DNA from: an uncultured Thermoleophilia bacterium
Lineage (GTDB): Bacteria > Actinomycetota > Thermoleophilia > UBA2241
Direction of reading: 5' to 3'
Assembly (NCBI GenBank): GCA_963715985.1
Contig: CAVQSP010000014.1
Span: 256,001-320,000, forward strand
Length of the DNA: 64,000 bases
Under the pieces are notes generated by a model. That model saw only the letters and a list, made by a program, of their open reading frames with translations, was not told the DNA's origin and searched no databases. The first letter of the stretch is position 1, and the number at the start of each line of letters is the position of its first letter. Position numbers and translations under genes: made by a program. Shown piece by piece: positions 4,806 to 57,095 of the stretch.

Positions 4806-4979
4806 CGCGAGGCGACGCTCCACCGGAGCCTCAATCTGTCTCGATCGTCGCTTGAGGCTTGGGTGCCTCCCGGGTCCGTCCTCAAGCTGCCGCAGAGACT
4901 CACGCGGGAACCTCTCAAACCTCTCGTCGTTCGCCTTTACTTCGCTGCCGCTCTCATCTAGCGTCGCGCCGCGAGTCTC
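4806..4979. ncRNA. Candidate structured RNA (6S/Ms1-like or cis switch; unverified)
   Basis: Outer stem 4806-4819/4960-4973; inner perfect 8-bp stems 4827-4834/4852-4859 and alternative 4850-4857/4880-4887; stem 4896-4908/4969-4979; no convincing ORF. Confidence 0.3.
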
Positions 4980-5059
4980 GCTGGGGACGGGGGTCTGCGC
5001 CTGACTCGCAGGCAGGTGCCGCGTGCGGGCCGGCCGCGAAGAAGACGGGGAGGCGCACG

Positions 5060-5506
5060 ATGGCGGCACGTCGGTCAGGCTACACGAGCGTGACGGCGAG
5101 GCGAGGCTCGCGGCTGCGGCTGCGGGACGCGGCGGATGCGGGAGCGCCGCCGGTCCTTGAGCTCTCCGGTGACTTCGACCTCGACACGGTGCCCGAGATC
5201 GACCGCTTTCTGCGCCGCCGCCTCGGCCCCCTGTACCATCGCGAGCACCTGGTGATCGACCTCTCCGCGACCACGTTCGTGGACTCGAGCTTCGTCGCCT
5301 TCGTGGTGAGGCTCCTCAAGGATCTGCGCGCGGGTCGCAAGGAACTCATCCTCGTGAGTCCCGCGGGTCAGGTGCGCAGGGTCCTGGCCCTGGTCGGCCT
5401 GCCCAACCTGGTGCCTGTGTTCGAGTCGGTCCAGGAGGCCCTGGCCGCGCTGACGACGGGACGCCTGCCCATCATCCCGCCGGCGTTCGAGGCCATGCGG
5501 TACTAG
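5060..5506 (+). CDS. STAS-domain anti-sigma-factor antagonist
   Basis: LSGDFDL, LVIDLSATTFVDSS (phosphorylatable Ser), VRRVLALVGL; GGAGG RBS. Confidence 0.88.
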   Translation: MAARRSGYTSVTARRGSRLRLRDAADAGAPPVLELSGDFDLDTVPEIDRFLRRRLGPLYHREHLVIDLSATTFVDSSFVAFVVRLLKDLRAGRKELILVSPAGQVRRVLALVGLPNLVPVFESVQEALAALTTGRLPIIPPAFEAMRY

Positions 5507-5585
5507 GAGAGCGCAGGCCCGGGTCCGAGCAGCGATGCGCGCCCTCCGGCAGGCGGGCGTGTGGGCGGGGTGCGCGGCGCCGGCG

Positions 5586-5909
5586 TCAGCTGGCGCGCCG
5601 CGCGGCGCTGATGTCACCCATGCGCCGGGCGGTCATCACGCGAGCCTGGAAGGCCCTCATGCGACAGGCGTCGCTGCAGTACTTCTTGGCGGGGTTGGTG
5701 GTGACGAACTCGCGATCACACGGCCCGTAGGCGCAGCGCCGTGCGATCTCTTCGCGCCGTGCCGACTTGCGCGCGCTCTGATGGTAGTCCTCCTGCCAGG
5801 CGCCCCCATGCAAGGCACACACGCTCGACGGGTTGTACGCCGACAGACGGGTACCACACCCCTCCACGATGCAGATCCGCCCACTTCCGTATGTTCTGGT
5901 CTTGAGCAT
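5586..5909 (-). CDS. Small two-zinc-finger protein (C-terminal finger CGNR-like)
   Basis: CIVEGC...CALH and CAYGPC...YCSDACRMRAFQAR; GAGG before ATG. Confidence 0.7.
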   Translation of the reverse strand: MLKTRTYGSGRICIVEGCGTRLSAYNPSSVCALHGGAWQEDYHQSARKSARREEIARRCAYGPCDREFVTTNPAKKYCSDACRMRAFQARVMTARRMGDISAARRAS

Positions 5910-39252: not shown

Positions 39253-40359
39253 TCACGTCTGCGCCGGGTGCGGGCGCTCCATCTCGCACGCCTCCGCCGC
39301 CGCCTCCTCGATCTCGCCCTCGGCGATGGGCCTGCGGCCCGGGCGCACCACGAAGTAGGCGATGAAGCCCGGCGGGATGGGCAGCCAGAAGTTGATCAAG
39401 CGGTAGACGAGCACCACGGCAACGGCTGTGGCGGAGGGCACGCCGAAGCTCACGTACAGGGCGATCATGATGCCTTCGACTGCCCCCAGACCCCCCGGAG
39501 TGGGGGCGAGCGTGCCGATGGCGTAGGCCACTACGTAGCCGACGGCGAGGTAGCCGAAGCCGATGTGGTAGTCGAAGGCCCAGAAGGTCACGTACAGGCA
39601 CAACAGGTCGAAGGCCCAGAAGGCGCAGGCCAGGGCCGTGGTGGTGCGGAAGGCGCCGCGGTGCGACGTCATGCGGCGCATACCGGCGAAGAGGTTGTCC
39701 AGCCAGCCGTCGATGTGGTCCTCCTGGATCACCTTCCGGCGCCAGATCCGGTTGACGATGTGCGCCACCTGCTGCGCCCGGCGGCGCATCCGCGCACGGT
39801 GGTTGTAGAGGTACACGCCGTAGCTGGTGAGCCAGAGGATGAAGCCGATGAGCACGATCCCGACCACGTACCCCGCTATGGACTCGCCGCGGGCGATCAC
39901 CAGCCAGAGGAGCGCCAGCGCGAACACGAACCACAGCACGATGTAGTTGAAGAACTGCTGCGCCGCGATGGCCACGAAGATCAGGCCGTGAGGCACGCGG
40001 TGCTTGCGCAGGGCGTTGTAGGTGACGACCCAGCCGCCGACGCCGCCGGCGGAGAGGATGTGGCTCACGGCGAGGCCGCTCAGGGTGATGGCCAGCACCT
40101 CGCGAAGGCGCAGGTGGATGTCCAGCACCTTGAGGATGTAGCGGGTCAGGTTCGCGTAGCCGAGCAGCGCCATGACCTCGAGGGCGATGGCGGCGGCCAG
40201 CAGCACCCAGCTCGCCCTGGTGAGCAGCGCGACCGTCTGCTCCGTGTCCACCAGCTTCGGGAGCAGCAGGTAGAGCACGAGGACGATGACGGCGAAGACG
40301 ATGATGTGGCGGATGGTCTTCTTGATGGGTGGCCTCCCCCGGCCGCGGGCGTCCGCCAA
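39253..40359 (-). CDS. UPF0104 / lysylphosphatidylglycerol-synthase TM-domain flippase-like protein (paralog 1)
   Basis: SAGGVGG, PTPGGLGAVEG, VLVYRLINFWLP. Confidence 0.88.
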   Translation of the reverse strand: MADARGRGRPPIKKTIRHIIVFAVIVLVLYLLLPKLVDTEQTVALLTRASWVLLAAAIALEVMALLGYANLTRYILKVLDIHLRLREVLAITLSGLAVSHILSAGGVGGWVVTYNALRKHRVPHGLIFVAIAAQQFFNYIVLWFVFALALLWLVIARGESIAGYVVGIVLIGFILWLTSYGVYLYNHRARMRRRAQQVAHIVNRIWRRKVIQEDHIDGWLDNLFAGMRRMTSHRGAFRTTTALACAFWAFDLLCLYVTFWAFDYHIGFGYLAVGYVVAYAIGTLAPTPGGLGAVEGIMIALYVSFGVPSATAVAVVLVYRLINFWLPIPPGFIAYFVVRPGRRPIAEGEIEEAAAEACEMERPHPAQT

Positions 40360-40416: not shown

Positions 40417-41446
40417 TCAGGTCTGGCTGGCCTGGCGCAGGCTCGCGTAGGTGGCGAGTCCCGCCGGGATGGGCAGCCAGAAGTTGATGAGGCGGTACAC
40501 GAGCACCACGGCTACGGCGGCGCTGGAGCCCGTGCCGAAGCCGGCCAGCAGCGCGATCATCACCGCCTCCACGGCGCCGAGCCCACCCGGCGTGGGGGAG
40601 AAGGTGCCCACCACGTTGGCCACGCCGTAGGCGATGAGCACGTAGTACACGGGCACCCACTGGTGAAAGGCGAGCATGACGGCCAGCAGGCAGAGGATGT
40701 CGAAGCCCCAGTAGCCGGCTGAATGGCCCACCGTGCGCAGGTGCCCGCGCCCGTCGTGGCGCAGCCGCCGCCAGCCGTCCACCACGCCGTCCAGCCACTC
40801 GTCGAGCTGCTGGTAGGGGACGCGCAGCCGGCTCCAGCGCCGGCCCAGCCAGTCCACCACCTGGCGGCCCCGACGCCGCAGCGCGGTGGGGTGGTTCAGC
40901 AGCCAGAAGCCGTACACGCTGAGCGCCAGCAGGAGCGTGACCAGAGCCGCGGCGACGGCCATCGCCAGGTCGTTGGCCTCGCCGCGCAGCACCAGGGCGA
41001 GAAGGCCGATACCGAAGAGGAGGAAGAGGACGCTGTACGCGAAGGCGTTCTGGAAGATCACGGCGATGAGTACGAGAGAGTGCGGCATGCCGCGCTTCTG
41101 CAGCACGCGGTAGGTGACGGCGGCGCCGCCCACGCCGCCGGCGGAGAAGAGGTGGGCGGCGGCGAGGCCGGCGAGGTTGATGCGCAGCGCCAGGACCAGC
41201 GTGACGGGGAACTGCAGCAGGCCGAGCAGGCGCCGGAACAGCATGGAGTAGAAGACCAGCGACGACCGTCTCCACGGCCACGGCGAGGACGAGGAAGCCC
41301 CAGCTCGCCTGGCGCACCAGATCCACCGCGTGGGCCTGCCCGGCCAGTCGCGGCAGGATGAGGAAGAGCGCCACCACGATGACGAGGAAGATGATGGCGG
41401 CGCGCAGCGGGTGGCCGCGCCGCGGCGGCGACTCGTCGGGCGGCAT
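40417..41446 (-). CDS. UPF0104 flippase-like protein (paralog 2; frameshift near 41265)
   Basis: SAGGVGG, PTPGGLGAVEA, VLVYRLINFWLP; N-terminus in another frame. Confidence 0.85.
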
Positions 41447-41450
41447 GGAG

Positions 41451-41873
41451 TCAGCGGCGGGCGTCGCGCCCGCCTCTCCGCTGCCGGGTGCGCGAGCCCC
41501 CTCCGAGCACCTCCGACTCTATCTCCTGGCGCCGCACCCAGGCGTAGGCCACGGCCACCGGCACGCCCGTGAACGGGATGGCGCACAGCACGAGCCAGCC
41601 CCAGCGCCCGGCCTTGAACGTCACGTACACGGCGTACACGCAGGTCACCGCCCAACCGGTGAGCAGGACGAGGCCCCACACCGCGGCAACGGGAGCCGGG
41701 ATGAACGTGACGTGGAGGGCCAGGGCGAACGCGCGCAGGAGGAACAGGACGAGGGTGAGGGACGAGACGAGGAAGAGGTTGGCCACCCGGCGCAGTTCAA
41801 GCTGGAGCTCGGGGTCGACGGCGACCCCGGGCCGGTCCCTGTCGAAGCTCATGCGGTCGCGCAGTCGTGTCAT
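41451..41873 (-). CDS. Hypothetical membrane protein
   Basis: Three hydrophobic segments; abuts the flippase gene. Confidence 0.6.
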   Translation of the reverse strand: MTRLRDRMSFDRDRPGVAVDPELQLELRRVANLFLVSSLTLVLFLLRAFALALHVTFIPAPVAAVWGLVLLTGWAVTCVYAVYVTFKAGRWGWLVLCAIPFTGVPVAVAYAWVRRQEIESEVLGGGSRTRQRRGGRDARR

Positions 41874-42210
41874 GCCCGTGCCCTGGCGAGGATGGCGCGA
41901 CAGGCACGCACGGCCCGTTGCGAGGACGCCCACAGTCTCGGCGATGGGCTCGCCGAACACAACCTGGGGCCCAGTGGGGACGGTGACAACGGTCCTTGCG
42001 GCTTGCATCGGCGGGCGGACTTTGGTTGACTGGCGGTCCACCGAACAACTGAGGCGTGCCGCGCGCCCCTCCATGCGTTCGCCCCCTAAATCGCTCGCAC
42101 GTTGCTTGCTGTGCGTGTGGAGAGACGTCTCTGCGGTCACGCGGAAAGCCCCGCCGGCGCCCTGCCCCCGCTCTGCCGCGCCCTAAGGGAAACCACGTCG
42201 AAAGGACACC

Positions 42211-42876
42211 GTGACCCGACGGACCAGCCGGATCGCGATGCTCGCATCGTTGCTCGTCGCTTTCACACTGTTTGCCGGTCTGCTCGTCTCCGACGCCGGC
42301 GCCACCACCTCGCTGCGCGGAAGGCTGCACATCGCCCAGCGAGAGCTCGACCGGGCCAACAAGCGACTCGAAGCCGCAAAGGCGGCCCTCGCGGCGGCTC
42401 AGGCGGCCGACGAATCGGCCGCCCCCGCGCCCTCCGGCGCCGCCAACGCCGCGCCCTCCCCCGATGTGGCCGATCTCCAGGCTGCGGTCGACGAGGCTCG
42501 GGACACCGTGCGCACCTGGAGCAGGAAGGTCGACCGCCTGGCCGCGGCCGTCAAGCAGGAAGAAGACATCGACGCCTGGGAGAAGAAGGGCGAGTGGATG
42601 CCCATCATCAGGATCGCGGCCGACAAATACGACGTCAGGGCCGACGGCATCTACCGCATGATGATGCGCGAGTCGGGCGGCGACCCCCGGGCGGGCGCCA
42701 GCTCCCAGTTCAAGGGCCTGTTCCAGTACTGGACGGGGACCTGGAAGAACGACTGGAACCCATGGCGCGACGAGAACATCTACGACGGCAGCTCGCAGAT
42801 CTTCGCGACGGCCTACGCCATCCACAAGGGTATGGGCCCGCAGATGTGGACGACGACGTTCGCGTCGCAGTATTGA
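42211..42876 (+). CDS. Secreted coiled-coil plus lytic transglycosylase (SLT/Rpf-like) protein
   Basis: Signal peptide, coiled coil, MMRESGG (catalytic Glu) and KGLFQY motifs; AAGGA RBS. Confidence 0.8.
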   Translation: MTRRTSRIAMLASLLVAFTLFAGLLVSDAGATTSLRGRLHIAQRELDRANKRLEAAKAALAAAQAADESAAPAPSGAANAAPSPDVADLQAAVDEARDTVRTWSRKVDRLAAAVKQEEDIDAWEKKGEWMPIIRIAADKYDVRADGIYRMMMRESGGDPRAGASSQFKGLFQYWTGTWKNDWNPWRDENIYDGSSQIFATAYAIHKGMGPQMWTTTFASQY

Positions 42877-43142: not shown

Positions 43143-43229
43143 GCCGGAGTGGCGGAACTGGTAGACGCGCTGGACTCAAAACCCGGTGCCCGAGAGGGCG
43201 TGTGGGTTCAAATCCCACCTTCGGCACCA
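43143..43229 (+). tRNA. tRNA-Leu (CAA)
   Basis: GCCGGAGTGGCGGAACTGGTAGACGCG...CT-CAA-AA, long variable arm, GGTTCAAATCCC, ends ACCA. Confidence 0.95.
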
Positions 43230-43357: not shown

Positions 43358-44041
43358 ATGACTGTGCGTCTCTTGGGGCTCGACTGCAGCCCTCGCGACA
43401 GAAGCAACAGCGGCATCATGCTCGAGACGGCGTTCGCGGGGCTCGACGAGAAGTACCCCGGCCAGGCCGAGCACGACATCGTCCACCTGCGGGACATCGC
43501 CATCGAGCCCTGCAAGGCGTGCAACGTGTGCGGCAAGACCAAGGATGGGCGCTTCATCCCCTGCGTGCGCGTGGACGACGATGACGTGCAGGCCGTCCTC
43601 GACCAGATGGTGGCCGCCGACGGCATCCTCGTGGCCACGCCCGTCTACTTCGGGCTGCCCACCGACCTGTTCTCGAAGTTCATCATGCGCACGCGGCCGC
43701 TGCGCCATCAGGACTTCAAGCTGGCCAATCGCCCTGTGGGCGTGATGGCCGTGGCCGGGCGCCGCTCCGGCGGCGCCGAGACGGCGATCATCGCCACCTG
43801 GCTGCCGTTCATCCGCAACGGCTGCCTCGTCGTGGGCAACGGCGACGGCACCTGCCAGTTCGGCGCCTACGGCTGGGCCGGTCCCCGCGGCCACATCCTC
43901 AGCGACGAGTGGGGCCTCGAACAGAGCTTCCAGACCGCCGAGCGCGTGTTCACCCTGGCCGGGCTGCTCAAGGCGGGCGCCGAGGCCACGGGCTTCGTGA
44001 ACCCCATGAAGTTCTCGTACAGTGCCGGGACGAGGTCCTGA
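43358..44041 (+). CDS. Iron-sulfur flavoprotein (Isf / NADPH-dependent FMN reductase family)
   Basis: SPR..SNS, CKACNVC-x10-C, ADGILVATPVYFG, RSGGAE; AGGAG RBS. Confidence 0.88.
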   Translation: MTVRLLGLDCSPRDRSNSGIMLETAFAGLDEKYPGQAEHDIVHLRDIAIEPCKACNVCGKTKDGRFIPCVRVDDDDVQAVLDQMVAADGILVATPVYFGLPTDLFSKFIMRTRPLRHQDFKLANRPVGVMAVAGRRSGGAETAIIATWLPFIRNGCLVVGNGDGTCQFGAYGWAGPRGHILSDEWGLEQSFQTAERVFTLAGLLKAGAEATGFVNPMKFSYSAGTRS

Positions 44042-44080
44042 CCGATACCGTCCCTCGACCCGCGAGGAGCCCACGACACC

Positions 44081-44329
44081 ATGACCGACGCCGAGACCAT
44101 CCTTGAGTTCATCCGCGACGAGGCCGACCTGGAAGAAGACGAGGTCGGCCCCGACACCTCGCTGTTCCGCGACCAGCTGCTCGACTCGATGAACCTCACG
44201 GCGCTCATCGCGTTTCTCGAAGAGACCTTCTCCATCAAGGTGAAGCCCATGGACATCGTCTTCGAGAACCTGGACACCGTGAGCCACATGCTGGCCTACG
44301 TCGCGCGCAAGAAGGCGGGCGATGCCTGA
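44081..44329 (+). CDS. Acyl carrier protein (DltC-like)
   Basis: 82 aa acidic protein, LLDSM phosphopantetheine Ser, FLEETFSI, ENLDTV. Confidence 0.93.
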   Translation: MTDAETILEFIRDEADLEEDEVGPDTSLFRDQLLDSMNLTALIAFLEETFSIKVKPMDIVFENLDTVSHMLAYVARKKAGDA

Positions 44330-44522
44330 GGCATCCCCTCAGGGTTCACAGGCCGAGACCTCCCCGGAGCCCGCCGCCGCCGAGACGCCGCGCACGAGCT
44401 GGTTCTTCTACGGCCTCGGGCTGAGCCTGCAGACGCTGCTCTGGTTCCTGCTCTTCCTGGCGATCATCGTCGCCGTGCTCGTCGGCGGCCAGCTCACCGA
44501 GTTCCGCTACGTGGGCTTCTGA
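44322..44522 (+). CDS. DltX-like single-TM peptide with C-terminal Tyr motif
   Basis: One TM helix followed by terminal FRYVGF; start overlaps the ACP stop. Confidence 0.8.
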   Translation: MPEASPQGSQAETSPEPAAAETPRTSWFFYGLGLSLQTLLWFLLFLAIIVAVLVGGQLTEFRYVGF

Positions 44523-44541
44523 CCACCCGCCCTCCCGGCAC

Positions 44542-46116
44542 ATGCCCTCCGACTTCATGACCGACGCGGTCGCCCGCCTGCGGGGCTGGGCCGCGGAACG
44601 CCCGGATGCGGTGCTTCTGCTCACGCGCGGGCGCACCTACACGTACGCCGACGTGCTCGAGCGCGCGTCTGCCGTGGCCGCCGGTCTGCGTGCCGCCGGT
44701 GGCGGCCGCGGCCGCCGCGTCGCTCTGCTTCTGGAGGAGTACGACGAGTTCTTCGTCTGCATGCTCGGCGTGTGGCTGGCGGGGGCCGTGGTCGTACCGC
44801 TCAACACGAGCCTGCCCCGCGCCGACGTCGCCTGGCTGCTCGGCAAGTGCGCGCCGGACCTGCTCGTGCTGCCCGGTGGCGATGCGGCCGCACGCGGCAC
44901 CGCGGGCACGGCCGGCGACGGCGGCCCGCTGCGGCTCGCCGTCGCCGCCGGCCCGGACGGCCGCGTCGAGGGCGTGGTGCCGGTCGGGGAGGCGGGCTCT
45001 GCGTCAGGCGCTTCGTCCGGCCGGCCGTCACGGGCCGGGGACGCCCCGGAGCCTGTGCGCGAGGACGAGACTGCGATGATCATGTTCACCTCGGGCACCA
45101 CCGGGCTGCCCAAGGGCGTCTGCCAGACCCTGCGCGCCGTCTCCAGCAACGCGGGGCACGTGTCGGCGGTGCTGGGCCTGCGCCCCGAGGACCGCATCTT
45201 CATCAACACGCCGCCGTACTTCACGAGCGGCATCTGCCACTTCCTCACGCTGCTCGCCGCCGGCGGCGGTCTGGCCGGTCAGCTGGGGTTCTTCTTCGGC
45301 GCCGGATTGCTGGGAGAGATGGAGGCACAGGGCTGCACCGGCTTCGGCGGGGCGCCCGCGCACCTGGTGCGCGTGGTCGAGCCGCTGGAGGAGCCCCGCG
45401 AGCACGCCTTCCGCTTCTGGGTGAGCAGCGGCGACCACCTTCCGCTGCACGTGATCGAGAAGTTCCGCCGGGTGCTCCCCGGCGTGGACCTCTTCAACAT
45501 GTACGGGCTCACCGAGGTGAGCGGCCGGCTGTGCGTGCTGCCGCCGGCCGAGCTCCACACGCTGGAGGGCTCCGTGGGCCGCCCCATCGGGGACATGCGC
45601 GTGGTGGCGCGGCGCGGCGAAGGCGCCGAGGCGGCGCCCGGCGAGACCGGCGAATTGTTCGTGACGGGCTCGCTGCTCATGCAGGGCTACCTGGACGAGC
45701 CCGAGATCACGGAGCGCACGCTCACAGAGCACGGGCTCAAGACGGGCGACTTCGGGCACGTGGACGCGAGCGGCGCCGTGTGGATCGCCGGGCGCAAGGA
45801 CGACATCATCAAGCGCGGCGGCGAGAAGGTGAGCATCGTGCACGTGCAGCAGGCTCTGCAGGGCCTGGGCCGCTTCGCCGACGTGGCCGTGCTCGCCGCC
45901 CCCGACGACATCCTCGGGCACGTGCCCGTGGCCTTCGTCGTGCCGCACGACAGGGAGGGGTTCAAAGCCTCCCGGCTGCTCCGCGAGCTGCGCGGCGTGC
46001 TGCCGTCCGCCTCCCTGCCCAGCCGCGTGATCGCCGTGGACGAGATCCCGCGCACCGGGTCCGGCAAGGCCATCCGCGCCCGCCTGGAGGAGTTGCTCGC
46101 GGAGGACGCCCGGTGA
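44542..46116 (+). CDS. Stand-alone adenylate-forming (AMP-binding) ligase
   Basis: FTSGTTGLPKG, NMYGLTE, TGD, GRKDDIIKRGGEKV, PRTGSGK. Confidence 0.93.
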   Translation: MPSDFMTDAVARLRGWAAERPDAVLLLTRGRTYTYADVLERASAVAAGLRAAGGGRGRRVALLLEEYDEFFVCMLGVWLAGAVVVPLNTSLPRADVAWLLGKCAPDLLVLPGGDAAARGTAGTAGDGGPLRLAVAAGPDGRVEGVVPVGEAGSASGASSGRPSRAGDAPEPVREDETAMIMFTSGTTGLPKGVCQTLRAVSSNAGHVSAVLGLRPEDRIFINTPPYFTSGICHFLTLLAAGGGLAGQLGFFFGAGLLGEMEAQGCTGFGGAPAHLVRVVEPLEEPREHAFRFWVSSGDHLPLHVIEKFRRVLPGVDLFNMYGLTEVSGRLCVLPPAELHTLEGSVGRPIGDMRVVARRGEGAEAAPGETGELFVTGSLLMQGYLDEPEITERTLTEHGLKTGDFGHVDASGAVWIAGRKDDIIKRGGEKVSIVHVQQALQGLGRFADVAVLAAPDDILGHVPVAFVVPHDREGFKASRLLRELRGVLPSASLPSRVIAVDEIPRTGSGKAIRARLEELLAEDAR

Positions 46117-47180
46117 GGGGCTTCAGGGCCGGCTTCCGCAACCGCAACCCGCTCGTCCTTGTCGTCGCCGGCCTGCTCCTCCTGCCGGCGCTCCTCGGTT
46201 TCCAGTACTACTTCACGAGCGGCGCCTGGAGCGACGTGCCGCTCAAGTATTGGCTGCGCAACCCCACCGACTCGTTCACCTACGTCTCCTGGACCGTGGG
46301 TCACACCAAGCTGCAACCGCCGCCCGCTCCCGCCCTGTATCTGACGGGCGGCTCGTCGGCCCGCGAGGCCCTCGTCAGCGGGGCCGGCCTGGCCGCCGAC
46401 GTGCGCACACTGGGCGGGCCCAGCATCAGCGCCTGGGACCTGGGCTTCATCAACCAGAACTTCGCCGAGACTCTGGCGATCGCCGACAACGTGCCCGCCG
46501 ACGGATCCTGGGTGCTGGTCGGTGTGAACCTGGGACGCTTCGCGTCGTACCCGGCCGCGAACGAGCGCCAGGTGGTGGGTCGCGACCTCCTGCTCAAGAG
46601 CGCCTTCCTGCACAGCTACGTAGCGGACACCTACGGCCACTACACGTACTCGTTCACGATCCTGCCGGGCATCTTCTCGTACCTCACCAGCTATGCGAAG
46701 AAGGACGGCACGAGACTGCTCGAGGGCAAGCTCCCGGCGAGGGAGTACCGCCAGCACCAGTACACCGTGGCCAAGAACCACAGCGACGCCCAGAAGCGGC
46801 GCATGGTCAAGACGTGGCTGGCCGACCGCTACCCCGTGTTCCGCCACAACCTCAAGTACAACCTGGCCATGCTCGAGCAGATCCTCGTGCGCTGCCGCCA
46901 GCGCGGTGTGCACGCCGTGATCGTGGAGCTGCCGCTCAACCGCGACATCGTCGGCAAGCGCTTCGAGAAGGCCATCGTGCTGTACCGCGTGCCTACGATG
47001 GCCCTTGCTGCCGAGTACGACGCGCCCTACGTGGACGTGAACGCCGCGGCCGCAGTGCCGAACCGCGACTTCCACGACCTCTCGCATCTCGTGGAGCCGG
47101 GCCGCGTGCTGTGGCAGCGGCAGCTGGCCAAGGCGCTGGTGCCGCTGCTCGGCGCGGCCACCCCGGGAGGCACGCAGTGA
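46113..47180 (+). CDS. DltD-like SGNH-fold acyltransferase 1
   Basis: N-terminal TM anchor, LTGGSSARE (block I Ser), FHDLSHL (DxxH). Confidence 0.72.
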   Translation: MRGFRAGFRNRNPLVLVVAGLLLLPALLGFQYYFTSGAWSDVPLKYWLRNPTDSFTYVSWTVGHTKLQPPPAPALYLTGGSSAREALVSGAGLAADVRTLGGPSISAWDLGFINQNFAETLAIADNVPADGSWVLVGVNLGRFASYPAANERQVVGRDLLLKSAFLHSYVADTYGHYTYSFTILPGIFSYLTSYAKKDGTRLLEGKLPAREYRQHQYTVAKNHSDAQKRRMVKTWLADRYPVFRHNLKYNLAMLEQILVRCRQRGVHAVIVELPLNRDIVGKRFEKAIVLYRVPTMALAAEYDAPYVDVNAAAAVPNRDFHDLSHLVEPGRVLWQRQLAKALVPLLGAATPGGTQ

Positions 47181-48427
47181 AGATCTACTTCACCGTGTAC
47201 CTCATCCCGGTGGTCGTCATCGCGCTGCTGGTGTTCTGGCTCGCCCTGCGCCGTCAGGAGCGCGCCAAGCTCGTCTTCCTCGCCCTGCTCTCGGTGGGCG
47301 CACTGGCCGTGCTCAACCCGGTCTTCGCGGCCATCGCTGTGGGGCTGGTGCTGATCGCCCACCAGCTGGTGGAGCTCAAGCGGCGCGGCCGCCTCAGCGG
47401 CGGCCGCGTGGTCCTGCTCATCGTGCTCATCGGTGTGGTCACGCTGGCAATCGGCAAGTACGGGCAGCGTGGTGCCATGGCGGTGTGGGGCGACGACGAC
47501 TGGATCGTCGGCCGCCTCATCATGCCGCTGGGCATCAGCTACTTCGTGTTCCGCCTGCTCCAGTACGTGTTCGACTGCATGCGCGGCGTGATCCAGGAGA
47601 ACTCGTTCCTGCGCCTCGTCGCCTTCGTGATGTTCATCCCCACCTTCCCGGCCGGCCCCCTGGAGACCTACCAGGGGTTCTACGAGAAGCGCAGCTACCA
47701 CTTCGACCGCCAGCTCTTCTACCTCGGCCTCCGGCGCATCGCCCTCGGCTACTTCAAGAAGGTCTTCGTGGTCGACTTCCTGTTCTCGATCTTCTTCCAG
47801 GGCATCATCGACGCGGTCAAGGTGGCACACCCCGACTGGAGCGGCATGAACCAGCTCGTGCCGCTGGCCTACGTGATCATCGTGTTCGTGCGCGCCTACT
47901 TCGACCTCTCCGCGTACACCGACCTCGCGATCGGCTTCTCGGCTCTGTTCGGCTTCCGCATCATGGAGAACTTCCACCTGCCCTTCCTGCAGAAGAACCT
48001 CAGCGACTTCTGGCGCAGCTGGCACATCTCCCTCTCCACGTGGTGCCGCAACAACGTGTACTTCCCGGTGTTCGGCCTCACGCGCAAGGTCTGGCTGGGG
48101 CTCTACGCGAGCATGCTCACCATGGGCCTCTGGCACTACGTGGACCTGCAGTGGCTCGCCTGGGGCCTGTACCACGGGACCGGGCTGGTGGTGTTCTCGC
48201 GCTGGGAGCGCTGGAAGAAGAAGCGCCGCAAGGCGCGCAAGAAGGCCGGCAAGCCCCCGGCGGCGGGCTACGAGAAGTTCCTGGGCTGGATCGGCTATCC
48301 CGCCACCTTCCTCTACGTGGCGCTGGGGTACGCGTTCGTCTCGTCGGTCACGTTCCAGCACGCACTCGCCCTCTTCTACAACGCACTCATCGGCCCCATA
48401 CTCTGGCTGACCGGTCATCCTCTGTGA
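47177..48427 (+). CDS. MBOAT family acyltransferase (DltB/AlgI-like)
   Basis: PLGISYFVFR, PAGP, DLSAYTDLAIG, ENF..PF...SDFWRSWHISLSTW, GLWH, WGLYHG. Confidence 0.95.
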   Translation: MKIYFTVYLIPVVVIALLVFWLALRRQERAKLVFLALLSVGALAVLNPVFAAIAVGLVLIAHQLVELKRRGRLSGGRVVLLIVLIGVVTLAIGKYGQRGAMAVWGDDDWIVGRLIMPLGISYFVFRLLQYVFDCMRGVIQENSFLRLVAFVMFIPTFPAGPLETYQGFYEKRSYHFDRQLFYLGLRRIALGYFKKVFVVDFLFSIFFQGIIDAVKVAHPDWSGMNQLVPLAYVIIVFVRAYFDLSAYTDLAIGFSALFGFRIMENFHLPFLQKNLSDFWRSWHISLSTWCRNNVYFPVFGLTRKVWLGLYASMLTMGLWHYVDLQWLAWGLYHGTGLVVFSRWERWKKKRRKARKKAGKPPAAGYEKFLGWIGYPATFLYVALGYAFVSSVTFQHALALFYNALIGPILWLTGHPL

Positions 48428-48431
48428 TGGG

Positions 48432-49643
48432 ATGAGTGTGGCGGTGGCAAAGGAACCCGTCAGCGCCGGCGGCGGGCCGGCGCGCCCGCGCCGCGCAGCC
48501 TTCGCCCGAGGGTTCCGCCAGCGGAACCCTCTGGTGCTCGTCGCCGCGGCGTTGCTCGCCGGCCTGCTGATCCTGCTGGCGCAGCAGGTCTTTCTCCGTG
48601 GCGGTTTCACCGCCGTCTCCGAGGGTCGCTTCCTGCGCATCGAGAACGACGACTACGTCCACCTCGCCTACAGGCTCGCGCAGCTCAAGAAGGACCCGCC
48701 GGTGGGCCCGACCCTGTACCTCTTCGGCGGCTCCGGGGCGATGGAGTCCATCGTGAGTCAGCGCTCGCTGGCGCAGCAGCTCGAGCGCGACGGCGCCGGC
48801 GAGGTCAACGTGATCAGCCTCGCGGCGCACCGCGAGACCCTGGCCGCGACGCTCGCGCTCATCGACAACCTGCCGCCGGGCCAGGTGGCCCTTGCCGTGG
48901 GCCTCACGCCGATGCGCTTCACCACCTCACCGGCAGAGGACGCCGGGCTGCTGCAGGGCAAGCCGATCATCGTGAAGAGCCCCCGGCTGGCCGAGCTGGG
49001 GCCGCGCCTCTACGGTAAGGACTCGCGCTTCTGGGGGCTGCTGCCGGGCATGTTCGACTACGCCGGCGCCTACATCCGCGAGCGCGCCAGCGCCCCCTTC
49101 TGGGGCGTGCGCATCCCCTACGCCCACCACTACTGGCAGAAGGGGGAGACCGGCGCCCTGCCGCTGGCCAAGCGCCGCAACGTGCTCTCGGTGCTGGCTC
49201 GCGACCAGCGGCTGTACGCGGAGAACGCGGACTACAACTTCGAGGTGCTCAGGGAGATCCTGCGCCTGGCCGGCGAGCGCGGGTTCTCCGTGGTGCTGTG
49301 GGACCAGCCCCTCAACGGCTCGGCGGCCGGCCCGGACTGGGCCGGGGTGGTGCCGGCCTACCGCAGGCGCGCCGAGGCGCTGGCGCGCGAGGCCGGCGTG
49401 CCGTATGTGCACCCCGGCGACACCGCCCGCCTGGAGGACGCCGACTTCGCCGACCTCTTCCACCTGCTTGACCGCGGGCGGCTCAAGTGGCAGCCGTCGT
49501 TCTCGAGGGAAGTGACCGCGGCCATCGGCCTGCTGGGCGGCAGCGCCGCGGCCGTGCCCGTCGGCATGGACCAGCCTGCGCCGCCCCCGCTGCCGGAGCC
49601 GTCGCTCTCGCCGATCCTGCCGACGGCTGCGCCCGCGCCTTAG
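48432..49643 (+). CDS. DltD-like SGNH-fold acyltransferase 2
   Basis: N-terminal TM, LFGGSGAME, FADLFHL (DxxH); shares GFR.RNPLVLV with paralog 1. Confidence 0.7.
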   Translation: MSVAVAKEPVSAGGGPARPRRAAFARGFRQRNPLVLVAAALLAGLLILLAQQVFLRGGFTAVSEGRFLRIENDDYVHLAYRLAQLKKDPPVGPTLYLFGGSGAMESIVSQRSLAQQLERDGAGEVNVISLAAHRETLAATLALIDNLPPGQVALAVGLTPMRFTTSPAEDAGLLQGKPIIVKSPRLAELGPRLYGKDSRFWGLLPGMFDYAGAYIRERASAPFWGVRIPYAHHYWQKGETGALPLAKRRNVLSVLARDQRLYAENADYNFEVLREILRLAGERGFSVVLWDQPLNGSAAGPDWAGVVPAYRRRAEALAREAGVPYVHPGDTARLEDADFADLFHLLDRGRLKWQPSFSREVTAAIGLLGGSAAAVPVGMDQPAPPPLPEPSLSPILPTAAPAP

Positions 49644-52700: not shown

Positions 52701-54521
52701 TCACGGGAGGAGCTTCTGCGCCGCTGCGACCGCGCGCAGTGCCTCCTGAAGGCTCACGCGCGCCAGCGGCCTGAGCTTCTCGGTGTCGATGACGTTGTGC
52801 GGAGGGATGCCCTTCTGGATGAGCTTGGCATGATGGAGCAGGCGCACCTCCGACATGCTGGCGTAGGCCTCGTTGAGGCCACGGGCCTGGTCGGCGAAGG
52901 CGGGGCTCAGCTCCTGTACGGTCACGAGGCGCTCCACCGTGCCGCCCGCCGACACGCCTCTCGAGAAGGCGTAGAAGCGGGCCAGGTTTATCACGGGCAG
53001 AAGGCCGCTCTTCTTGATGTCGACGGGGCCGGTGAGCCGACCCCGGAACCCCAGGGGCGAGGGGATCTGCGAGGCCAGGTGGGCCAGGCCGCTCAGAAAG
53101 CCGCCGTGCCTTGGCGCCCTGCGCATGACTGCGCTGAGCGGCGTCACGATGTCGAGGTCCCCTGCCACGCGACGGAAGTCGAAGGCGATGCTGGCGCGCA
53201 GGAGGTTGTTCCAGTCCCACACCTGCAGGCAGCGCGCGAACACTTCCACCCAGGCGCTTTGCGAGAGGCGCCAGTGGGGGTCGCGGGCCAGGACTCCCGA
53301 CTCGTCGAAGCTGAAGCCGCACCGCGCGAGCCCGCTGTTGACCTCGTCGGCCACGAGCGCGAAGTAACCCTTCGCCTCCGGGTCGTCCGTGTCCTCAAAC
53401 GCGAGGGCGTTGTCCTGGTCGGAGGCCAGTGTGAGCTCGTTGCGGGCGCTGCTCCCGAGCGCGAGCCAGGCGAACGGCACCGGAGGTGGGCCGTGACGGG
53501 CGATGGAGAGCTCGAGGAGGCGGCTCGTCATCACATCGCTCAGCAGTGTGATGACGCGGGTCACCGTCGGCGCGTCGAGGTGCGCGTCCAGAAGACCGAC
53601 GAACAGGCCGGGAAGCTGCGCCGCGGCCGCCACCACGGCGTCATCGTCGTGAGCCGTGCTGATGGACCAGCGCAGCGCGAAGGGGCTGAGCGCATCGAGG
53701 TTCATCAGGCTGCCCGCCGACACCACGCCCAGCACGTGCCCGTCTCTGCCCACCACGGGGAGGTGGTTCACCCCGGCCTGCATCATCTCGATGCTGGCTT
53801 GTGGGGCGAGGATATCCTCGCTCACCGTGGCCACGGGAATGGTCATGATGGCGCTCACCGGCACCTCCGGCGACACGCCGACGGCGAGGACCTTCTTGCG
53901 CAGGTCGGCGTCGGTGACGATGCCGAGCCCCTCGCTCGTCTCCACGAGCAGCGCCGTCACGATCTCGTCGCTCATCAGTCGCGCCGCTTCGCGAACGGTG
54001 GTGTCCGGCGGGCAGAACACCGGCGCCCGCCGGATGAGCGAGGTGACCGGCACGCTGCGCACGTCCGGCATGGAACGCACCGCGTCGGTGGCGCGCACGA
54101 GCCGGTCACGGAAGCCGCGGGCCACCATGGTGACACCTTCGGGACGGCTGAGCACGGCGATGGCCTCGTCACGGGGCAGGAGGTACAGGTCCGTGTCCTC
54201 GCGGGCCCTCACCGTGAACTCCGGGGCGAGGCCCGAGAGCAGGGTGGGGTGGCCGAAGAGCTGTCCCTTGGTGACGACGTCGACGACGAAGCCCTTGTGG
54301 TCGATCTCCATGGTGCCGTCGCGGACCACGTAGAGGTGGTCGCCGGGGCGGCCGTTCTCCACCAGCACCGCCTCGCCGGTGACGGCGTGGCGCTCGACGA
54401 CGGCGGCCGCCACACGCTCCAGCTCGGGTCGCTCGAGGGCGTCGAACGGCTGGTACCGCCCCAGGAAGCGGGCGATCTCCCTGACGCGGTCAGATGCCGC
54501 GGCTGATGTGACCGCCGTCAT
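52701..54521 (-). CDS. cNMP-binding / CBS-pair / DUF294 nucleotidyltransferase protein (copy 1)
   Basis: YQPFDAL, LYVVRDG, GQLFG (cNMP); GIVTDADLR, HLPVV (CBS); LGSSARNE....SDQDNAL (GS..DxD); DIKKSGL.P. Confidence 0.92.
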   Translation of the reverse strand: MTAVTSAAASDRVREIARFLGRYQPFDALERPELERVAAAVVERHAVTGEAVLVENGRPGDHLYVVRDGTMEIDHKGFVVDVVTKGQLFGHPTLLSGLAPEFTVRAREDTDLYLLPRDEAIAVLSRPEGVTMVARGFRDRLVRATDAVRSMPDVRSVPVTSLIRRAPVFCPPDTTVREAARLMSDEIVTALLVETSEGLGIVTDADLRKKVLAVGVSPEVPVSAIMTIPVATVSEDILAPQASIEMMQAGVNHLPVVGRDGHVLGVVSAGSLMNLDALSPFALRWSISTAHDDDAVVAAAAQLPGLFVGLLDAHLDAPTVTRVITLLSDVMTSRLLELSIARHGPPPVPFAWLALGSSARNELTLASDQDNALAFEDTDDPEAKGYFALVADEVNSGLARCGFSFDESGVLARDPHWRLSQSAWVEVFARCLQVWDWNNLLRASIAFDFRRVAGDLDIVTPLSAVMRRAPRHGGFLSGLAHLASQIPSPLGFRGRLTGPVDIKKSGLLPVINLARFYAFSRGVSAGGTVERLVTVQELSPAFADQARGLNEAYASMSEVRLLHHAKLIQKGIPPHNVIDTEKLRPLARVSLQEALRAVAAAQKLLP

Positions 54522-55478: not shown

Positions 55479-57095
55479 TCAATCCGGGGCGTAGACCTCC
55501 ACGCAGTCCTTGCCACGGAGCTTGGCTTCGTACAGGGCCTTGTCGGTCTTCTGCACCAGGTCTTCGGCGTCGGCCGCGTGCAAGGGGAGCGTTGCCACCC
55601 CGATGCTGGCGGTGATGCCGTCCCATGGAGCACCCTCCGACGACACCTGCAGGCGGGCGATCGCGGCGCGGATGCGCTCTGCTGTGGCGACCGCGCCGTC
55701 GGGTGTGACCCTGTCGGCCAGCACGGAGTCGGTGCTCGGGAGGACGACCATGAACTCCTCGCCGCCGTACCGCGCGGCGACGTCGACGCCGTGCCGCACC
55801 TGCCCGCGCAGAACCTCGCCAACCGCACGCAGTACCTCATCGCCGAAGAGGTGCCCGAAGCGGTCGTTGACGCTCTTGAAGTCGTCGAGGTCCAGCATCA
55901 GCAGGGAGACCGGCTGGCCGTAGCGACGGGCGCGGGCCACCTCGTCCCGCAGACGTGTCCAGAACTGGCGGTGATTGGCGAGGCCCGTGAGGCTGTCGGT
56001 GGTTGCCTGTACTTCGATCGTGGTCTTCTGCTCCTGCAGGCGGCGGTACAGCTGGGCATTGTGGATGGCGACTGCGGCCTGCTCTCCAAGGGCCACGCAA
56101 AGTGCCGTCTCCTGCTCGCTGAAGTGGCGCGGGTAGGCGGTCTCGCTGACTTCGAGCGCGCCTACAACGGCGTCGCCCATGATCAGCGGCACCATGAGCG
56201 ACGACTGCTCCTGCCACTCGGCGAGTTGGGTGCGGGCGTGCGGGTCCAGGTCGGGGTCGTCGAGGCGGACCTCAACGGGACGCCGCGTGCGGACCACGGC
56301 GAGATCCTGGGGCAGCCCGTCCAGCGGGTAGACGGCGCCGAGTGGCTCTTCGAACACGTGATCGGGGTCGCGCTGGTACTCGGCCAGCCACACCATGGCG
56401 TCGCCCTCAGGGTCGTACTCGTAGATGTAGCTGCAGGCGGCGTCGAGGGCGCGCGCGGCCTGCCGGCACACGACCTCGAGCACCTCGTCGATGTCCAGGG
56501 TGGAGATCATCGCCTTGGACGAGTCGATGAGGGCCGTGAGCTGGCGGTTTCGCTCCTCCACCGCCCGCGTCACACGGGCGTTGCGGAGCGCGATGCCGGC
56601 GAGCGCGGCCATGCGGCGCACCAGCGTCGTCTCCGTCTCGTCGAAGGTGCGCGGGCGCTCCTTCTCGGTGAGCTCGAGGATGCCGAGCACCTCATCATCG
56701 TGGGTGATCGGCGCCCAGACGGCGGCCAGCTCACCCCAGTAGGCCATGCTCTCGAAACCGCCCGTGGCCGCGTCCACGGGGTCCTCGGGGTGCGAGACGA
56801 CCACCTCGCGCCGCGTGATCACGGCCTCGAAGTCGGGGATCTCCACGAGCGCGTGCATCTCGCCGACCCAGGTGCGGTCGCGGGGCGTGAGCCCGCGTGA
56901 CCAGATCGCCAGGGCGCGCAGCGCATCGTGTTCCGGCAGGTAGTCATAGATGCAGCACTCGTAGCAGCCGAGCGCCCTGGCGATCTCCTCGGCCAGGATG
57001 GCAAGGGTCTCCGGCAGCACGCTGCCGCCGTCGCCTTCATCGCGCAGAACGACGAAGGAGCGGCCGTCCGTGTAGATGTCGTCCCCATGTTCCAT
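55479..57095 (-). CDS. GAF-GAF-GGDEF diguanylate cyclase
   Basis: Two GAF-like repeats, TDSLTGLAN, DLDDFK.VND.FGH..GD, RYGGEEF, DKALYEAK..GK. Confidence 0.94.
   Translation of the reverse strand: MEHGDDIYTDGRSFVVLRDEGDGGSVLPETLAILAEEIARALGCYECCIYDYLPEHDALRALAIWSRGLTPRDRTWVGEMHALVEIPDFEAVITRREVVVSHPEDPVDAATGGFESMAYWGELAAVWAPITHDDEVLGILELTEKERPRTFDETETTLVRRMAALAGIALRNARVTRAVEERNRQLTALIDSSKAMISTLDIDEVLEVVCRQAARALDAACSYIYEYDPEGDAMVWLAEYQRDPDHVFEEPLGAVYPLDGLPQDLAVVRTRRPVEVRLDDPDLDPHARTQLAEWQEQSSLMVPLIMGDAVVGALEVSETAYPRHFSEQETALCVALGEQAAVAIHNAQLYRRLQEQKTTIEVQATTDSLTGLANHRQFWTRLRDEVARARRYGQPVSLLMLDLDDFKSVNDRFGHLFGDEVLRAVGEVLRGQVRHGVDVAARYGGEEFMVVLPSTDSVLADRVTPDGAVATAERIRAAIARLQVSSEGAPWDGITASIGVATLPLHAADAEDLVQKTDKALYEAKLRGKDCVEVYAPD

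Follow-up and report, generated by a model that had tools for sequence, protein, structure and literature searches.

A block of seven co-oriented genes, here termed g1 to g7, lies in a 64,000-nucleotide stretch of DNA from an uncultured Thermoleophilia bacterium (the window; GC-rich actinobacterial DNA of genome G000, contig C14). We suggest that this block encodes a carrier-fed trans-membrane acyl relay that has the architecture of the DltXABCD pathway and is a separate, paralogous system, and we give this reading a probability of roughly 0.7. In what we consider the best reading of the sequences, the block would be a real, conserved operon for a Dlt-type acyl relay with a non-amino-acid loader. 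The evidence comes from an MBOAT protein and a microprotein that share between them what other MBOATs carry in one chain, from a ligase and a carrier protein that score far below the Dlt models, from two SGNH proteins with invariant catalytic residues, and from the gain and loss of the block as a unit.

Results

Organization of the block

The upstream boundary of the block is a tRNA-Leu(CAA) gene (43143-43229, plus strand) identified with ARAGORN. The genes that follow, all on the plus strand, encode a 227-residue FMN_red flavoprotein (g1, 43358-44041; Pfam FMN_red, 8.2e-21), an 82-residue carrier protein as the DltC counterpart (g2, 44081-44329; Pfam PP-binding, 3e-10), a 66-residue membrane microprotein ending in FRYVGF as the DltX counterpart and presumed acyl-Tyr shuttle (g3, 44322-44522), a 524-residue adenylating acyl-carrier-protein ligase (g4, 44542-46116; AMP-binding, 1.9e-67; AMP-binding_C, 1.7e-12), a 355-residue, N-terminally anchored and predicted extracytoplasmic SGNH protein of an MBOAT-proximal orthologue group as the DltD counterpart (g5, 46113-47180), a 416-residue DltB-type MBOAT without a fused C-terminal shuttle motif (g6, 47177-48427; Pfam MBOAT, 2.1e-19), and a 403-residue second SGNH paralogue with its own orthologue group (g7, 48432-49643; 32% identity to g5). 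Read on the DNA, g2 and g3 overlap by 8 nucleotides, and the neighboring genes have a GTGA in common at the g4/g5 junction and again at the g5/g6 junction; the intergenic gaps are 39 nucleotides (g1/g2), 19 nucleotides (g3/g4) and 4 nucleotides (g6/g7). A sequence-only reading of the window had described seven co-oriented genes after tRNA-Leu with three overlapping junctions, and the open reading frames (ORFs), ARAGORN and the junctions bear this out, as Pfam does for the per-gene assignments to MBOAT, PP-binding, AMP-binding and FMN_red. The relay architecture of Dlt that it had recognized also stands, in that all five roles are present in tightly packed, partly overlapping genes and the MBOAT and the microprotein are split. 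The names given to the block's relatives in the protein collection are generic (WrbA, acyl carrier protein, long-chain acyl-CoA synthetase, AlgI, hypothetical). A scan for a sigma-70-like promoter consensus between 42800 and 50000 gave no match; such a scan is of little weight for this kind of organism.

A split MBOAT and a microprotein with an invariant C-terminus

The g6 protein matches MBOAT (PF03062) with 70.4 bits, above the gathering score of 27. Its sole NCBIfam match is the DltB equivalog TIGR04091 (157.8 bits vs a cut-off of 375), and the solved structures that it matches are those of DltB only (6bug and 8jem; 1e-33). His289 and His336 of DltB, numbered as active-site histidines in a passage of PMC11035591, align with H283 and H320 of g6, both of which are invariant in 31 orthologues. 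The C-terminus of g6 reads TGHPL and has no fused FxYxxF motif, while the genome's two MBOATs of the AlgI type (533 and 490 residues; contig C17) end in FLYFKF. Because of this difference, we classify g6 as the split type, like DltB; with both active-site histidines and without the fused motif, it has the hallmarks of a DltB-type MBOAT, and the missing motif is provided in trans by g3. A crude selection of the longest ORF at 28 further actinobacterial MBOAT loci gave the fused motif in 11; most of the remaining ORFs are in the wrong frame of GC-rich DNA, and we place no weight on this count. A profile of g6 run against 1.84 billion representatives retrieved 4148 proteins at E≤1e-30. Among the best 150 of these 4148 (50%-identity representatives), 88 are full-length, and all 88 match the DltB model only, at 109-208 bits vs 375. 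Of the same 150, 130 fall into two length classes (90 of 370-440 residues and 40 of at least 490 residues), and none of the 130 ends in FxYxxF. The profile matches thus place g6 among numerous split MBOATs that resemble DltB but are distinct from it. About 40 other split DltB-like MBOATs (P0341, P0342, P0345 and approximately 37 more) are 490-583 residues long and have an extra N-terminal membrane anchor and about 140-185 residues preceding the MBOAT core, a region that g6 does not have.

The g3 protein has a single hydrophobic segment (residues 28-62), and its C-terminal FRYVGF fits FxYxxF. The FXYXXF hexapeptide is the acyl-Tyr shuttle of DltX according to a passage of PMC12148441, and the DltX motif is given as FLYFGF in a passage of PMC11035591. 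A micro-ORF ending in FxYxxF is present in 46 related loci, and in every one of them the last nine residues are LTEFRYVGF and the N-terminal third of the protein varies freely; an alignment of 31 g3 sequences has the same pattern, with LTEFRYVGF invariant. Measured on these alignments, the conservation of the C-terminus is far above chance. The transmembrane peptide ending in FRYVGF of the sequence-only reading is thereby confirmed, and with one predicted transmembrane helix followed by a C-terminal FxYxxF hexapeptide g3 has the composition of a DltX protein. Relatives of g3 in the protein collection number 323, and none of the 120 among the matches listed carries a Pfam domain. A Pfam scan at E≤10 returned no DltX-named family for g3, a search in which a hydrophobic query of 66 residues has little power.

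Comparison with Dlt proteins of the same phylum

As a positive control, two other Actinomycetota genomes with real dlt genes (G246 and G194) were searched with the same library. DltA of G246 passes the PRK04813 subfamily model (486 vs a cut-off of 476) and reaches 490.9 bits with TIGR01734, under its cut-off of 559.85, and DltB and DltD of this genome pass their models (480.6 vs 375 and 234.4 vs 150, respectively); in G194, DltB scores 443.6 and DltD 169.3. The G246 locus (L121; contig C1, 63000-75000) contains DltA, DltB, an 82-residue DltC, DltD and a 53-residue micro-ORF ending in PEFVYEQF; this DltX-like micro-ORF is placed after dltD and not first. The identity between g4 and DltA of G246 is 22%, and that between g6 and DltB is 28%. 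The models thus detect actinobacterial Dlt proteins, and the operon in the window is a different system.

The carrier protein g2 matches PP-binding in Pfam (40.6 bits vs a cut-off of 20.8). In NCBIfam, it remains below the DltC model NF003464 (29 bits vs 68), and the generic acyl-carrier-protein models, with 37.8 bits, are likewise under their cut-off. The serine motif LLDSM of g2 is like that of real actinobacterial DltC, and the two proteins are 27% identical in the comparison with G246 (E 1e-6).

The ligase g4

With the DltA equivalog TIGR01734, g4 scores 85.2 bits, the same level as an unrelated ligase of the same genome (86.2 bits). Its best NCBIfam match is PRK06187 (270 bits), and its nearest models are fatty-acyl-CoA-ligase subfamilies, all under cut-off; with TIGR01733, the model for amino-acid adenylation, it reaches 184 bits vs 317.4. 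Among PDB entries, LgrA is at the top by summed score, which adds three stretches of which the best single one has 91 bits, and the best single-domain matches are the fatty-acyl-CoA ligases FadD5 and FadD13; 3wvn, a beta-amino-acid-selective enzyme, is also among the matches. On these scores, g4 classifies as a fatty-acyl-CoA-ligase-like adenylating enzyme and not as DltA.

The predicted pocket residues point in the same direction. Thr228 of g4, within the invariant NTPPYFTSGICHF (FTSG), faces the amino-binding Asp of FDxS when g4 is aligned with both LgrA adenylation domains, Escherichia coli EntF and real actinobacterial DltA, and 21 of 21 g4 orthologues have Thr at this position. A ten-position read-out of the pocket gives TSCGVSMGRK for g4 vs DVFIICTAVK for actinobacterial DltA, so that 9 of 10 positions differ, and all ten g4 positions are invariant or conserved in 20 of 21 orthologues. 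The numbering of these positions reportedly stems from work on gramicidin PheA; we located them by motif anchors, with position 278 taken as the residue three before the conserved Pro. Applied to E. coli EntF, the same rule gives DVWHFSLVDK, which we take to be the serine code and used as validation of the rule. Because of Thr228 and the pocket read-out, an alpha-amino acid appears unlikely as the substrate of g4. The expectation of the sequence-only reading that the ligase is not of the D-Ala-specific type and has a pocket different from that of Dlt is in line with these comparisons. Finally, Arg329 is invariant at the pocket-floor position amid the small residues G269, S296 and G328; this arrangement suggests a polar or anionic distal group on the substrate, and we regard it as a lead and not as a prediction.

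The SGNH proteins g5 and g7

Over 343 residues, the two paralogues are 32% identical (E 2e-44). In an alignment of 36 g5 relatives, G79-G80-S81 and D322-x-x-H325 are invariant, and all 125 family members compiled from the window and its related loci retain Ser81, Asp322 and His325. An AlphaFold2 model of g5 built from the 36-sequence alignment has a mean predicted local distance difference test score (pLDDT) of 89.7. When this model was searched with Foldseek, the DltD crystal structures came first (6o93, E 2.4e-4, followed by 3bma and 6pfx); in a Foldseek-seeded VIA comparison, DltD is absent from the 50 top Z rows, and in a wide search it ranks 37 and 41. From these structure comparisons, the fold of g5 is SGNH and its overall extent DltD-like. 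The fold was modelled for g5 and is carried to g7 by homology. In both proteins, an SGNH fold accordingly goes with a nucleophilic Ser and the acid-base pair of a DxxH motif, as the sequence-only reading had proposed for the two proteins flanking the MBOAT. Each also has one N-terminal hydrophobic segment that follows an Arg-rich stretch (3 Lys and Arg residues in g5 and 5 in g7, and no Asp or Glu), a predicted anchor that fits an outward-facing catalytic domain. Neither g5 nor g7 has an NCBIfam match at E≤0.01, and hence none to the DltD model TIGR04092 (150-bit cut-off). Members of the g5 family make weak Pfam contacts with DltD (4 of 36), DUF1574 (12 of 36) and Lipase_GDSL_2 (35 of 36).

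In a tree of the SGNH family, four groups match gene position. The upstream copy next to the MBOAT gene forms a group of 55 sequences that includes g5, an additional upstream copy forms one of 20 (support 1.0), the downstream copy, with g7, one of 35 (support 0.999), and orphans at other places in the genome one of 14 (support 1.0). There are two upstream copies in 19 loci and three in one locus. The orphans are not beside MBOAT or carrier genes.

The flavoprotein g1

The FMN_red match of g1 has 74.6 bits (cut-off 24), and the cysteines C52xxC55xxC58...C69 are at least 90% conserved among 25 orthologues. An FMN_red domain is thus combined with a compact four-Cys motif that we take to be the signature of Isf, and g1 is predicted to bind an Fe-S cluster; both features agree with the Fe-S flavoprotein that the sequence-only reading had assigned to the operon as its redox enzyme. 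The AlphaFold2 model of g1 is poor (pLDDT 59.6), and ESM Atlas returned generic FMN_red clusters only. The only PDB match is the flavone reductase FLR (7d38; N-terminal 110 residues, 2.3e-9), described in a passage of PMC7862272 as an FMN ene-reductase. One locus in which g1 is missing (L043) has an opposite-strand membrane-protein gene in its place. That gene (4841-5647, minus strand) encodes a 269-residue multi-pass membrane protein that may be heliorhodopsin-like. The flavoprotein travels with the block, and at least one species does without it. Its role may be to tailor the acyl group on the carrier, or it may be a passenger only.

Distribution and behavior as a unit

A pattern scan of species-representative genomes yielded 77 loci, nearly all labelled as Thermoleophilia metagenome-assembled genomes (MAGs). 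The operon is present in 52 of these, of which 40 have the length needed to judge all seven genes. All seven genes are present in 34 of the 40, and the core of carrier, microprotein, ligase, SGNH protein and MBOAT (g2-g6) in 40 of 40, so that the gene set does recur together, as the sequence-only reading had anticipated; g7 is missing in five loci (L027, L034, L040, L051 and L052) and g1 in one (L043). The same tRNA-Leu precedes the operon in 41 related loci. The flanks are syntenic as well: on the upstream side are era, hisI, LPG_synthase_TM genes, two genes without a name and the tRNA-Leu gene, and on the downstream side genes for an M42 peptidase and a propeller together with GGDEF or DUF294 genes; therefore, conservation of gene order alone proves little.

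Among 401 evenly sampled Actinomycetota genomes, a tally that includes five flagged unpublished genomes, a close g6 (74% identity) was found only in the genome of the window and in one congener, and the next-best match has 38% identity. The order that has the operon consists of one family with 89 genomes, 32 of which are of high quality. Within it, g6 is present in 75 of the 89 genomes (28 of the 32), g4 in 78 (29 of the 32) and g1 in 75 (28 of the 32). A comparison by hand of the three presence tables gave 72 genomes in which g4, g6 and g1 are together present and 11 in which they are together absent. The latter include G423 (98% complete, one contig), G435 (97%) and G463 (95%). None of the 89 genomes has g6 or g1 without g4; g4 occurs without g6 in three fragmented genomes and without g1 in three genomes (G421, G477 and G478). 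In G423, the order is era, hisI, LPG_synthase_TM, tRNA-Leu(CAA), M42 peptidase, propeller; the tRNA abuts the peptidase gene, and between the two there is nothing of g1-g7. Thus, the block, including g1, behaves as one insertion/deletion unit. A mobile island at the tRNA was considered and appears unlikely; there is no integrase-like gene among the scanned flank ORFs, and the block tracks the phylogeny of the order.

In six loci (L035, L053, L055, L057, L013 and L018), operon genes are in several in-frame pieces or contain a stop codon. These are MAG loci, and the breaks are probably indel errors, so that the apparent pseudogenes are not to be trusted. In a search of sequencing runs, the matches listed included no RNA run and 24 rows of DNA data, from metagenomes of wetlands and soils.

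Several neighbors of the block are conserved in position. Upstream, on the opposite strand, are two paralogous LPG_synthase_TM (MprF flippase-like) genes (39253-40359 and 40417-41679, both minus strand; Pfam 3.5e-37 and 4.3e-29), a pair that is syntenic with the operon in many related loci. Between them and tRNA-Leu are two conserved genes without a Pfam family (41451-42140, minus strand, and 42211-42876, plus strand), neither of which was found beside the tRNA in the operon-free genome G423. Downstream, a cNMP-binding/CBS/DUF294 nucleotidyltransferase gene (52701-54521, minus strand) and a GAF-GGDEF diguanylate cyclase gene (55479-57095, minus strand) are both in conserved synteny.

Discussion

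In the model that we favor, g4 would adenylate a carboxylic acid other than an alpha-amino acid and attach it to the phosphopantetheine arm of g2. Next, the MBOAT g6 would pass the acyl group across the membrane to Tyr63 of the FRYVGF ending of g3, and g5, g7 and perhaps the orphan paralogues would accept it on their catalytic Ser. The SGNH proteins, in turn, would esterify one or more extracytoplasmic acceptors. A TagB/TagF-type glycerophosphotransferase was not found in the genome of the window, which is 88.8% complete, and the genome has two LCP ligases. A classical teichoic acid is thus not evident, and the likelier acceptor is another glycoconjugate of the wall or membrane. The product would then be an undescribed acyl decoration of the cell envelope, as we infer in agreement with the sequence-only reading.

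Among the alternatives, the one that fares best, and that we still consider unlikely, dispenses with the Tyr relay. In this scenario, the MBOAT acylates a membrane lipid or a small molecule straight from the carrier, and the SGNH proteins are trimming or recycling esterases or lipases. It accounts neither for an invariant FxYxxF microprotein that is translationally coupled to the carrier gene nor for a g6 without the fused motif or a g5 with the anchor and extent of DltD. Somewhat less probable still is that the relay transfers another amino acid or amino-acyl group, for instance glycine or a beta-amino acid. The rank of LgrA by summed score, the presence of 3wvn among the matches and the 184 bits with TIGR01733 are compatible with such a substrate. 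However, the LgrA rank adds up three separate stretches, TIGR01733 remains under its cut-off, the amino-binding Asp is Thr in every orthologue, and the best single-domain matches are FadD5 and FadD13. It is very improbable that the block is a strongly diverged genuine Dlt system that still transfers D-alanine. The five roles, the split MBOAT/microprotein layout and the LLDSM motif of g2 are what such a system would have, but g4 scores no better with the DltA model than an unrelated ligase does and has little identity to real DltA, its pocket has Thr for Asp and differs at nearly every position, and the proteins of the window fall short of cut-offs that real Dlt proteins of this phylum reach. 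We give equally little credence to the idea that the seven genes are mere syntenic neighbors co-inherited in one clade, for although the flanking order is conserved too and some loci lack g1 or g7, neighboring genes overlap at their start and stop codons, the five roles complement one another, neither g6 nor g1 occurs without g4 in the 89 genomes, and exactly this block is deleted in G423 with its flanks kept.

Several observations weigh against the Dlt-type relay that we prefer. Only one order has the gene set, and because the flanks there are syntenic as well, the co-occurrence is partly inherited linkage. Neither g3 nor g5 nor g7 has any Pfam family at E≤0.01 or a match to a curated family. 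The identity of g3 to a real DltX-like micro-ORF (38% over 39 residues) is a weak and composition-prone match, and the positive-inside rule leaves the orientation of g3 unfixed. For g5, hhalign of its profile with real DltD gives a probability of 10% (E 0.003) and aligns the DxxH block only, and at the sequence level the tie of the g5 family to DltD is marginal. The pocket read-out uses positions of nonribosomal peptide synthetases, while g4 is overall nearer to fatty-acyl-CoA ligases, and the residues read may not all line its pocket. Finally, with no TagB/TagF-type enzyme found, the classical Dlt acceptor is not evident.

We also put forward a tentative and, in its full form, doubtful extension of the model. 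The relay might add an anionic or polar non-amino acyl group, such as a dicarboxylic half-ester, g1 might tailor this group on the carrier, for example by enoyl reduction, and one hub of MBOAT and microprotein might serve many SGNH transferases and several acceptors. If so, the surface would gain negative charge from an anionic acyl group, contrary to the effect of D-alanylation. If the relay reading itself is right, the Dlt mechanism would be a general platform for exporting diverse acyl groups, and a widespread uncultured actinobacterial order of wetlands and soils would bear an envelope chemistry that nobody has sought. The small soluble pair of ligase and carrier makes the acyl group directly testable in vitro. 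In our literature search, we found no description of the system encoded by this operon, and the only carrier-fed MBOAT relay with a separate Tyr-shuttle microprotein that we found described is Dlt.

Comparison with known systems

Passages of PMC12148441 (2025) set DltB/DltX, with the motif on a separate microprotein, apart from other MBOAT pathways, which carry the motif fused and have neither microprotein nor carrier. In PatA/PatB, AlgI/AlgJ/AlgX and their relatives, as outlined in the same source, the shuttle motif is on two extra C-terminal helices and the MBOAT is fed by acyl-CoA, with no carrier or microprotein. The genome of the window also has a cluster of this classical type (L118; contig C17, 232000-246000), with a DUF459 SGNH gene, an unnamed gene, the MBOAT gene for 533 residues, a second DUF459 gene, the MBOAT gene for 490 residues and a third DUF459 gene; its MBOATs ending in FLYFKF stand beside DUF459 SGNH proteins, as in PatA/PatB- and AlgI/AlgJ/AlgX-like systems. 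The flavoprotein g1 has the FMN_red fold in common with FLR (7d38) and is without the C-terminal subdomains of the latter (227 vs 310 residues).

The closest likeness is to DltXABCD, the pathway by which Gram-positive bacteria (Bacillota) attach D-alanine to teichoic acids of the cell surface. In both systems, the adenylating ligase stands alone and the carrier protein is small, the MBOAT has about 400 residues, both active-site histidines and no fused motif, a single-pass microprotein ends in FxYxxF, and the SGNH-fold transferase is anchored at its N-terminus. They differ in that the ligase, carrier and MBOAT of the window are far below the curated Dlt cut-offs, in that the ligase has Thr for the amino-binding Asp and another pocket, and in the lack of a recognizable TagB/TagF-type polymerase. 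Moreover, the gene order is different, a flavoprotein gene is added, and loci of the window type have one to three upstream SGNH paralogues and one downstream, with orphans elsewhere in the genome.

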